Of a stretch of DNA of 64,000 bases, positions 49,376 to 49,574 are shown piece by piece. The stretch is from an uncultured Clostridium sp. (lineage in GTDB: Bacteria > Bacillota > Clostridia > TANB77 > CAG-508). Numbering within the stretch: position 1 is the first letter of the stretch; each line of letters begins with the position of its first letter. Where the stretch lies: positions 50,653-114,652 of the forward strand of contig CAMMLS010000002.1 in NCBI GenBank assembly GCA_946497775.1. The letters are read 5' to 3'. The notes below the pieces were generated by a model, which was not told the origin of the DNA, searched no databases, and saw only the letters and a program-made list of their open reading frames with translations. A program made the position numbers and the translations under genes.

Positions 49376-49574
49376 AGAGTAGCCGAAAAGATAGATATAT
49401 TAAAATTTATGTAGCGACGACGTGTGCCTGTAAGGGTCGTACAAACTCTTAATAAAGTTCAATGAGGGTGCGGAATCGGAGAGGCTCATTGGATTTTCTT
49501 TTAGAGTTTGTAGACCCTGGAAGGTGTTCCTAGGAGCGTAATAAATTTTAATATATCTATCTTTTCGGCGGCTC
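49376..49574. mobile_element. MITE-like or structured-RNA element: perfect 28-bp terminal inverted repeats (49382-49409 / 49541-49568) flanking a relatively GC-rich ~130-bp core with nested complementarity
   Basis: GCCGAAAAGATAGATATATTAAAATTTA ... TAAATTTTAATATATCTATCTTTTCGGC. Inner GGGTCGTACAAACTCT pairs with AGAGTTTGTAGACCC. Confidence 0.5.

Follow-up and report, generated by a model that had tools for sequence, protein, structure and literature searches.

The window is the whole stretch of DNA analysed here, 64,000 nt from a contig of an uncultured Clostridium sp. All genes at the locus under study lie on the - strand. One of them (47934-49244, with a second ATG at 49220) encodes a protein whose N-terminus is type IV pilin-like and carries the N_methyl motif. 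The first-pass annotation had called it an FGE-domain gene. The Pfam FGE-sulfatase match is weak (16.2 bits, below the threshold of 23.3) and covers only residues 350-410, so this label is weak. The solid feature of the gene is its pilin-like N-terminus. No exact-protein record of the pilin-like protein was found. Its neighbour (45790-47751) encodes a 653-aa sulfatase-family (LtaS-like) protein. We gathered relatives of the locus through the neighbouring proteins and through proteins sharing the N-terminal 100 residues of the pilin-like gene. This gave 64 loci (290 kb), cited below as L with a number.

A control module of ~600 nt precedes the pilin-like genes. Its promoter half consists of a TAGACA-17-TATAAT promoter, a ribosome-binding site with a small ORF holding a (CA)n tract, a terminator-like hairpin with a T run, and the sequence GTTTTAAAGGnAGCC. 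The gene half starts with a long hairpin and goes on with TACTCTAC, a variable linker with a T run, the block ..TAACCGAATAGGGTTAGTAGTTTTTG..AATATGATAAGATAG and a ribosome-binding site, after which the pilin-like gene begins. In the window, the promoter (P1; 49799-49827, - strand) has 11/12 matches; none of the modules found lacks it, and it recurs in a second copy within the window, copy A (45038-45066). The small ORF (MIKINAGSLVGVHTHTHI*; 49705-49761, -) has a (CA)8 tract at 49711-49726; lengthening the tract by a single CA unit gives a conserved frame of 30 aa that stops beside the terminator. The terminator-like hairpin and T run (T1; 49614-49665, -) are kept in all modules and in copy A. 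On the 5' side of the long hairpin there is GTTTTAAA(A)GGnAGCC (49570-49584, -), conserved beside both hairpin types described below. The 3' flank (49349-49381, -) has a conserved TACTCTA, a variable linker of ~19 nt and a T run, and is replaced en bloc between otherwise identical strains.

The conserved block GATAACYGAATAGGGTTAGTAGTTTT..AATATGATAAGATAG (49277-49324, -) combines a TAACC-N6-GGTTA palindrome with an invariant TGnTAAGAT; in each copy, 57-84 nt separate the block from the hairpin upstream. Its 3' half, GGGTTAGTAG, is invariant in all hairpin-bearing modules. The palindrome is a putative operator and TGnTAAGAT a putative extended -10 promoter (P2). If so, the operator would be centred near -42 relative to P2. 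If TGnTAAGAT is a real promoter, the own mRNA of the gene would not contain the hairpin. The hairpin does lie between the conserved promoter and the gene, as the first-pass annotation described it. A search of both strands for a conserved promoter immediately upstream of the hairpin found none.

The long hairpin of the window is of type 1a and spans ~190 nt (49382-49569, assigned to neither strand). We studied it by fold, repeat, conservation and covariation analyses. The perfect 28-bp inverted repeat seen at first is real: GCCGAAAAGATAGATATATTAAAATTTA at 49382-49409 (+) has its reverse complement at 49542-49569. The position given for the first arm was right, but the second arm, placed at 49541-49568, is shifted by one. 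According to 100 shuffles, no inverted pair of this 28-mer is expected. The basal stem is perfect over 29 bp (49382-49410/49541-49569) and stretches to 34 nt at 94%, with two mismatches (49377-49410/49541-49574). Likewise, the inner complementarity is present, and GGGTCGTACAAACTCT (49434-49449) pairs with AGAGTTTGTAGACCC (49503-49517) with one bulged G. The entire element folds as the single long hairpin that had been predicted, on either strand. The folding energies are -95.9 kcal/mol on the + strand (z = -11.7) and -77.1 kcal/mol on the - strand (z = -12.7), and 0 of 200 shuffles are equally stable. From its base upwards, the hairpin presents an AT-rich basal stem, asymmetric internal loops, an inner stem, a variable apical stem (~49452-49500) and a tip. 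The conserved loop motifs of the tip read GAGCCTCTCC and GCACCCTC on the gene strand. The core is GC-richer than its surroundings, as first reported: 46.9% GC, compared with 20.7% for the arms, 22-27% for the intergenic DNA on either side and 27.4% for the window.

A terminator scan did not call the hairpin as an intrinsic terminator on either strand. Downstream of the stem, the gene strand reads UACUCUA and the + strand GGCUCCUUUUAAAA. Neither has a U-tract, so the hairpin is not a canonical terminator. An overlapping ORF of 76 aa (49400-49630) has no conserved coding potential. The hairpin sequence is single-copy within the window, and no other repeat of such quality is associated with the locus. 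Elsewhere in the window, a second near-perfect inverted repeat (58857-58915) with 27-nt arms, 96% complementary and 5 nt apart, lies between divergent ORFs. It is also found at L005:3534-3592, and its sequence is unrelated to the hairpin.

The second copy of the module in the window, copy A (44826-45066, -), contains P1, the small ORF with (CA)8 at 44955-44970, and the terminator. It lies upstream of a DUF285/LRR gene, whose start codon (44826) is 33 nt beyond the terminator. The observation that copy A lacks the hairpin is correct; the conserved block is missing as well. The first-pass annotation had used the string aaaatttATG, found in both copies, to locate an insertion point. This argument fails, because copy A has the string on the gene (-) strand, whereas in copy B it belongs to the + strand, antisense to the gene. 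Read along the gene strand, copy B has AAAATTTATTACGC. The homology between both copies stops after the terminator T run (~49613 in copy B, ~44860 in copy A). It returns within the pilin-like signal sequence, at ATGAAAAA (49220 and 44826, respectively). Between these points copy B has ~390 nt of extra DNA (~49221-49612) against 33 nt in copy A, and the hairpin is only the first half of it. The borders of the extra DNA are therefore not the ends of the inverted repeat. The two copies were also rejected as the filled and empty site of a MITE, given this difference in length and borders that fall outside the repeats.

Related hairpins were found 29 times, in ~9 genomic contexts, on metagenome contigs. 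All 29 occupy the same position in the module, in the orientation of the downstream gene and 57-84 nt upstream of the GGGTTAGTA block. Neither the window nor the 290 kb from related loci contained a hairpin standing alone outside the module. The additional copies that the first-pass annotation proposed to search for do exist, but they occur only within the duplicated module upstream of genes. The hairpin is multi-copy as part of this module, and not the isolated single-copy palindrome considered at first. An exact scan of 185,579 species genomes with a core 20-mer gave one match. It corresponds to L004, a MAG labelled 'uncultured Clostridia bacterium' with a different neighbourhood (dnaG-rpoD ... 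scpB). A second core 20-mer and a degenerate pattern of the conserved block were absent from the JGI metagenomes. There was no exact match of an arm 22-mer in viral contigs, and no BLAST match of the 211-nt element in plasmids and phages. The exact-protein look-up of the flavin reductase returned the same contigs already gathered, and a literature search on the gene family found nothing pertinent. The distant N-terminal homologs P0054, P0062, P0092 and P0029, of which P0054 is a true pilin inside a pilus operon, have neither the module nor the hairpin. The element is thus restricted to the closest relatives of the pilin-like protein. On this comparison of assemblies, the control region of a family of pilin-like surface-protein genes in uncultured gut Clostridia includes the hairpin as a conserved element of fixed orientation.

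The hairpins fall into three kinds: types 1a and 1b, and type 2. Type 1a (window, L001, L004, L008, L009 and L064) is nearly invariant, with 1 change in ~150 nt outside the apex, and the surrounding modules are ~82% identical. Type 1b (L013-L019) is 79% identical to type 1a. In its basal stem, GCCG/CGGC is replaced by TCCC/GGGA and one G-C pair by T-A. Three G-C or C-G pairs of the inner stem are replaced by T-A, and further compensatory changes adjoin the internal loops or affect the tip (G-C to A-U). In the apical stem, three sequences without similarity to one another occur, each of which pairs. Type 2 (L020-L027, the second module of L013-L018, and L053) has a basal stem of comparable length, perfect over 22-27 bp, whose sequence is unrelated to that of type 1. 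This stem shows a compensatory change of its own, from CTCGGAG/CTCCGAG to CTTGGAG/CTCCAAG. The type 2 core is shorter than in type 1 (55-60 nt) and has in common with it the motifs TTCCTCGGACT, GCCTCAC and GCTTCGCGG. Across the types, the perfect basal duplex measures 29-30, 27 and 22-28 bp.

The first-pass annotation had proposed a covariation check on the core, and covariation is present. In the seven type 1 variants, 14 of 68 pairs are altered on both sides, while shuffles have a mean of 7.6 and 0 of 500 reach the observed value. Standard pairs fill 97.7% of the cells in these variants, against 26-48% with the partners slid. Within this alignment, the compensatory changes show that selection maintains the predicted fold. 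The duplex length is kept without its sequence, the asymmetric loops are conserved and the orientation is fixed. These three features favour a strand-specific function of a folded single strand and disfavour a relic of transposition. The hairpin most likely works as a folded single strand, most likely of RNA.

One module departs from this pattern. At L064:1930-1970, within the module L064:1700-2200, the flanking conserved parts are present and the long hairpin is replaced by a 12-nt mini-palindrome, GTCTttggAGAC. This hairpin-less module precedes a different small gene. The mini-palindrome looks like the scar of a palindrome deletion and not like an empty site. As for the surrounding genes, PDDEXK_2 genes (Rpn-like, from the PD-(D/E)XK nuclease 'transposase' family) directly adjoin the module in 3 of ~9 contexts (L004:4926-5339, L008:2652-3572 and L020:2640-3467). 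None is present in the window.

The hairpin was also compared with the described RNA families. The window has no match at the gathering threshold of Rfam 15. With E<=10, the region 49200-49900 only gives spurious miRNA, snoRNA and leader (S15) models. On six related loci, Rfam only finds tRNA and tmRNA, elsewhere in the loci. The proposal of a 6S-like RNA is not sustained, since there is no Rfam match and the fold has no central bubble. The proposal of a cis-acting regulatory RNA is still a live reading, as the compensatory changes show that the fold is under selection. Other candidates were discarded. A retron msr-msd does not fit, as no RT domain is present among the neighbours in any context. 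In an integron attC, the R''/R' sites are RYYYAAC ... GTTRRRY; here the stem base is GCCG.../...CGGC (or GTCC, GCCC), not AAC/GTT, and no integrase was called near the hairpin. A sigma-D -10 element (GCCGATAT) at the stem base is approached only in type 1a, without a correctly spaced -35. A likeness to a T-box in AATAGGGTTAGTAG has no Rfam match. Finally, the CU-rich loops might pair in cis with the cognate ribosome-binding site, as an anti-Shine-Dalgarno. By inspection, hairpins of type 2b contain nothing complementary to their sites (GGGAGTGG). There is consequently no covariation between them, and this pairing was dropped. The hairpin matches no described RNA family and is, by these comparisons, a new family of hairpins whose structure is under selection.

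The small ORF and the terminator upstream of the hairpin form a unit of their own. It is found in the window (49705-49761 and 49614-49665, -), in copy A (44862-45002) and in L004, L008, L013, L020, L024, L053 and L064. With (CA)8, most modules encode a peptide of 17-20 residues that stops ~40 nt before the terminator. A shift by one repeat unit opens a frame of 29-30 residues, whose C-terminal ..VHTHTHTGNLLEKINRRNI* is conserved across modules and whose stop codon is ~7 nt before the terminator stem. The number of repeats at the same locus differs by sample: (CA)9 in L013 vs (CA)8 in L014-L018, and (CA)4 in L020 vs (CA)8 in L021/L022. The unit looks like a phase-variable attenuator, in which a slipped-strand switch would act via ribosome-dependent attenuation. 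In the leader-peptide attenuators of the his, thr and trp operons, a short ORF likewise stops shortly before an intrinsic terminator, and the regulated gene follows. The small ORF found here shares this layout, upstream of a pilin-like gene. However, the position of its stop codon is set by the length of (CA)n and not by the supply of charged tRNA, and the long hairpin downstream of the unit has no counterpart in the classical attenuators. The candidate attenuator is not in Rfam, and no description of a repeat-controlled attenuator was found in the literature. It is probably a more striking object than the hairpin.

Considering all the above, we tentatively favour the hairpin as an RNA element of the control module. 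In read-through transcripts, it may be a target of a double-strand-specific RNase, or else an element of stability or insulation. We regard this as plausible, though short of probable. Transcription would start at the conserved promoter P1. Some transcripts would pass the small-ORF/terminator unit, possibly switched by (CA)n, and would carry the hairpin. Its long perfect duplex (~28 bp) could then be the target of an RNase III-type, double-strand-specific RNase, or confer stability or insulation. In this way, the hairpin would set the upstream leader apart from the promoter and 5'UTR next to the gene. Cleavage or binding at the duplex would uncouple or tune the upstream and downstream transcripts.

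Several features are in line with this proposal. Among strong promoters, only P1 was found in every module; it reads along the gene strand and precedes the hairpin. In L020, the terminator and the hairpin lie too close together for a further promoter to fit between them. A substrate of RNase III has a duplex of about two helical turns or more, and all the types have this length. RNase III processing stalks, such as the rRNA precursor stems and lambda sib, are perfect duplexes of >20 bp that enclose another RNA segment. The hairpin resembles them in that its sequence covaries and its duplex length is kept, with cleavage here predicted only. On the other hand, unlike these stalks, the element is specific to one gene family and one uncultured lineage. 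A further parallel is CREE/NEMIS (Correia elements) of Neisseria, of ~100-190 bp, with terminal inverted repeats of 26-29 bp and a distinct core. These repeats are often located between a promoter and a surface-protein gene, and when transcribed they form a long hairpin that is bound or cleaved by RNase III (PMC2649163). The co-transcribed Correia hairpins bind RNase III with an altered fate of the mRNA (PMC2649163). Under our proposal, the hairpin would act as these do in Neisseria mRNAs (PMC2649163), but would not be mobile.

The strand on which the hairpin is active is a point of conflict: the wobble pairs favour the + strand and the promoters favour the - strand. This leads to the main rival, a non-coding RNA, independent or antisense, made from the + strand. 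It would end at T1, acting bidirectionally, and regulate the gene or its paralogs. We consider it possible but less likely than an element in read-through transcripts. The consensus fold is more stable on the + strand (-88.8 kcal/mol, 72 pairs) than on the - strand (-75.3 kcal/mol, 68 pairs), and single sequences are 10-20 kcal/mol more stable on the + strand. Several pairs vary via G.U intermediates on this strand only. Mismatches on the gene strand are mostly A.C, equivalent to G.U on the + strand (in type 1, 9 cells vs 0). Over all types, ~10 independent wobble events, counted by inspection, favour the + strand vs ~3 the opposite, which is suggestive and not significant. On the + strand, the loops are rich in purines, and they look like ribosome-binding sites or contain GGA motifs. 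T1 ends in a U-rich tail whichever strand is read, and the ~390-nt extra unit is present or absent as one block. Nevertheless, the wobble asymmetry amounts to ~13 events, some of them phylogenetically linked. No module has a conserved + strand promoter of sigma-70 type upstream of the hairpin; the sole candidate is a weak TTTACT-16-TATCAT in L020. The stretch just ahead of the hairpin on the + strand varies more than any other part of the module.

A more elaborate reading, which we think doubtful, joins the hairpin and the attenuator in a so far undescribed, two-layer system of phase variation for a multigene family of pilin-like adhesins, with the hairpin at its centre. The slippage of (CA)n would gate the read-through. 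The choice among paralogs would be coordinated by a trans-acting hairpin RNA excised by RNase, or by gene conversion seeded at the palindrome. The excised RNA, with its 28-bp stem, would come from the read-through or the antisense transcript, and would expose conserved CU-rich loops (GGA-rich on the other strand).

Gene conversion is also the basis of a rival at the DNA level, which is unlikely. It considers the palindrome a hot spot of breakage or recombination, or a site for a nuclease or recombinase, where gene conversion diversifies the pilin-like genes. One indication comes from L005, the same locus in another sample. Along 20.5 kb, 78 differences separate the window from L005, which is otherwise identical, and every one of them falls within 49077-49500 (424 bp; L005:12949-13352), between the hairpin apex and codon ~50 of the gene. 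The replacing sequence resembles the paralogous module L064:1-300. A second assembly carries the same patch (L002/L006). The patch may stem from gene conversion, in which paralogous modules would exchange sequence and the invariant arms would provide the homology, or from an assembler that switched between repeats. In addition, the mini-palindrome GTCTttggAGAC in L064:1700-2200 is what a palindrome deletion is expected to leave, and the PDDEXK_2 (Rpn-like nuclease) genes adjoin modules in L004, L008 and L020. The perfectly conserved arm sequences would be explained equally well by a protein that recognizes the DNA or by homogenisation between the arms. Against this rival, the extrusion of a cruciform is improbable when the palindrome has a spacer of 55-130 nt, as is the case here. 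A palindromic hot spot also leaves unexplained the conserved asymmetric loops and the fixed orientation. The replaced patch may be ordinary homologous recombination between repeats or assembler switching among paralogs, and it stops short of the variable C-terminal domain.

The first-pass annotation had given a MITE-like insertion as one of two readings. As considered here, the hairpin would be a selfish palindrome of Correia type, inserted once in an ancestor and carried along by duplication of the module, with no function of its own. Our data make it still less likely than a DNA-level hot spot. The terminal inverted repeats (perfect over 29 bp) have the typical length, the core is GC-richer, copy A lacks the element and one module without the hairpin exists. 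Besides, many MITEs fold as long hairpins (PMC2229807, PMC2649163). But there is no target-site duplication: the flanks, ...TATAGAGTA|GCCG and CGGC|GGCTCCTT, contain no direct repeat and are partly complementary. The borders of the extra DNA differ from the repeats. The 29 copies share one position in the module and one orientation, and the assemblies and databases searched gave no dispersed copies and no transposase. The hairpin is also far more conserved than its surroundings, with compensatory changes in the inner stem. The comparison with CREE goes in the same direction. CREE is mobile, with 100-250 dispersed copies per genome that interrupt genes and whose sites vary by strain. Unlike CREE, the hairpin shows no duplication of flanking bases, a single position and orientation in the module, covarying inner stems and a second type with an unrelated stem.

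The last rival is an inverton like the cwpV and flgB switches of Clostridioides difficile, also Clostridia, in which a segment flanked by inverted repeats lies between a promoter and a phase-variable surface-protein gene (PMC2784873). In the cwpV switch, imperfect repeats of 21 bp flank 195 bp between an upstream promoter and the gene (PMC2784873). That a recombinase flips the 130-bp core between the repeats to turn the gene on and off is highly improbable: the layout is similar and the family of the downstream gene already shows repeat-length polymorphism in its leader, but the core orientation is identical in the 29 assembled copies, the repeats are perfect and longer than in cwpV, the type 1 core is itself quasi-palindromic (so that flipping changes little), the type 2 cores have only 55-60 bp, the nested stems show a covariation for which an inverton has no need, and no site-specific recombinase is among the genes called from ~13 kb upstream to 7 kb downstream, a distant gene acting in trans being possible.

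If the interpretation as a regulatory RNA element holds, the hairpin would represent a new structured non-coding family, outside Rfam, associated with variable surface proteins in uncultured gut Clostridia. The hairpin and the candidate slipped-strand attenuator in one leader would provide a compact, testable model for the way in which gut anaerobes switch or diversify adhesin-like proteins. The case also calls for caution. A textbook MITE signature (perfect terminal repeats, a core rich in GC, no counterpart in a paralog) proved, once relatives were compared, to be part of a regulatory module, fixed and selected there.

Other variations in repeat number and frame were observed around the modules. 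In type 2a modules (L020:3850-3910, L021, L022, L024 and L027), the linker after the hairpin is formed by tandem 7-nt units, ATTCATT or ATTCACT, whose copy number varies among samples. The 5'UTR of these modules contains GTAAAA repeats, also variable in copy number (L021 vs L022). Likewise, one extra base puts the signal sequence of copy A, MKNKNGITLIALIITIIVMLLLAGVTLSTIS (44722-44826), out of frame with the 430-aa DUF285 ORF (43365-44657, -). The copy-B gene of L001 also has a frameshift (~7630-7681), at AAAAAGCGG, beside A runs. These frameshifted genes could be pseudogenes or a further slippage switch.
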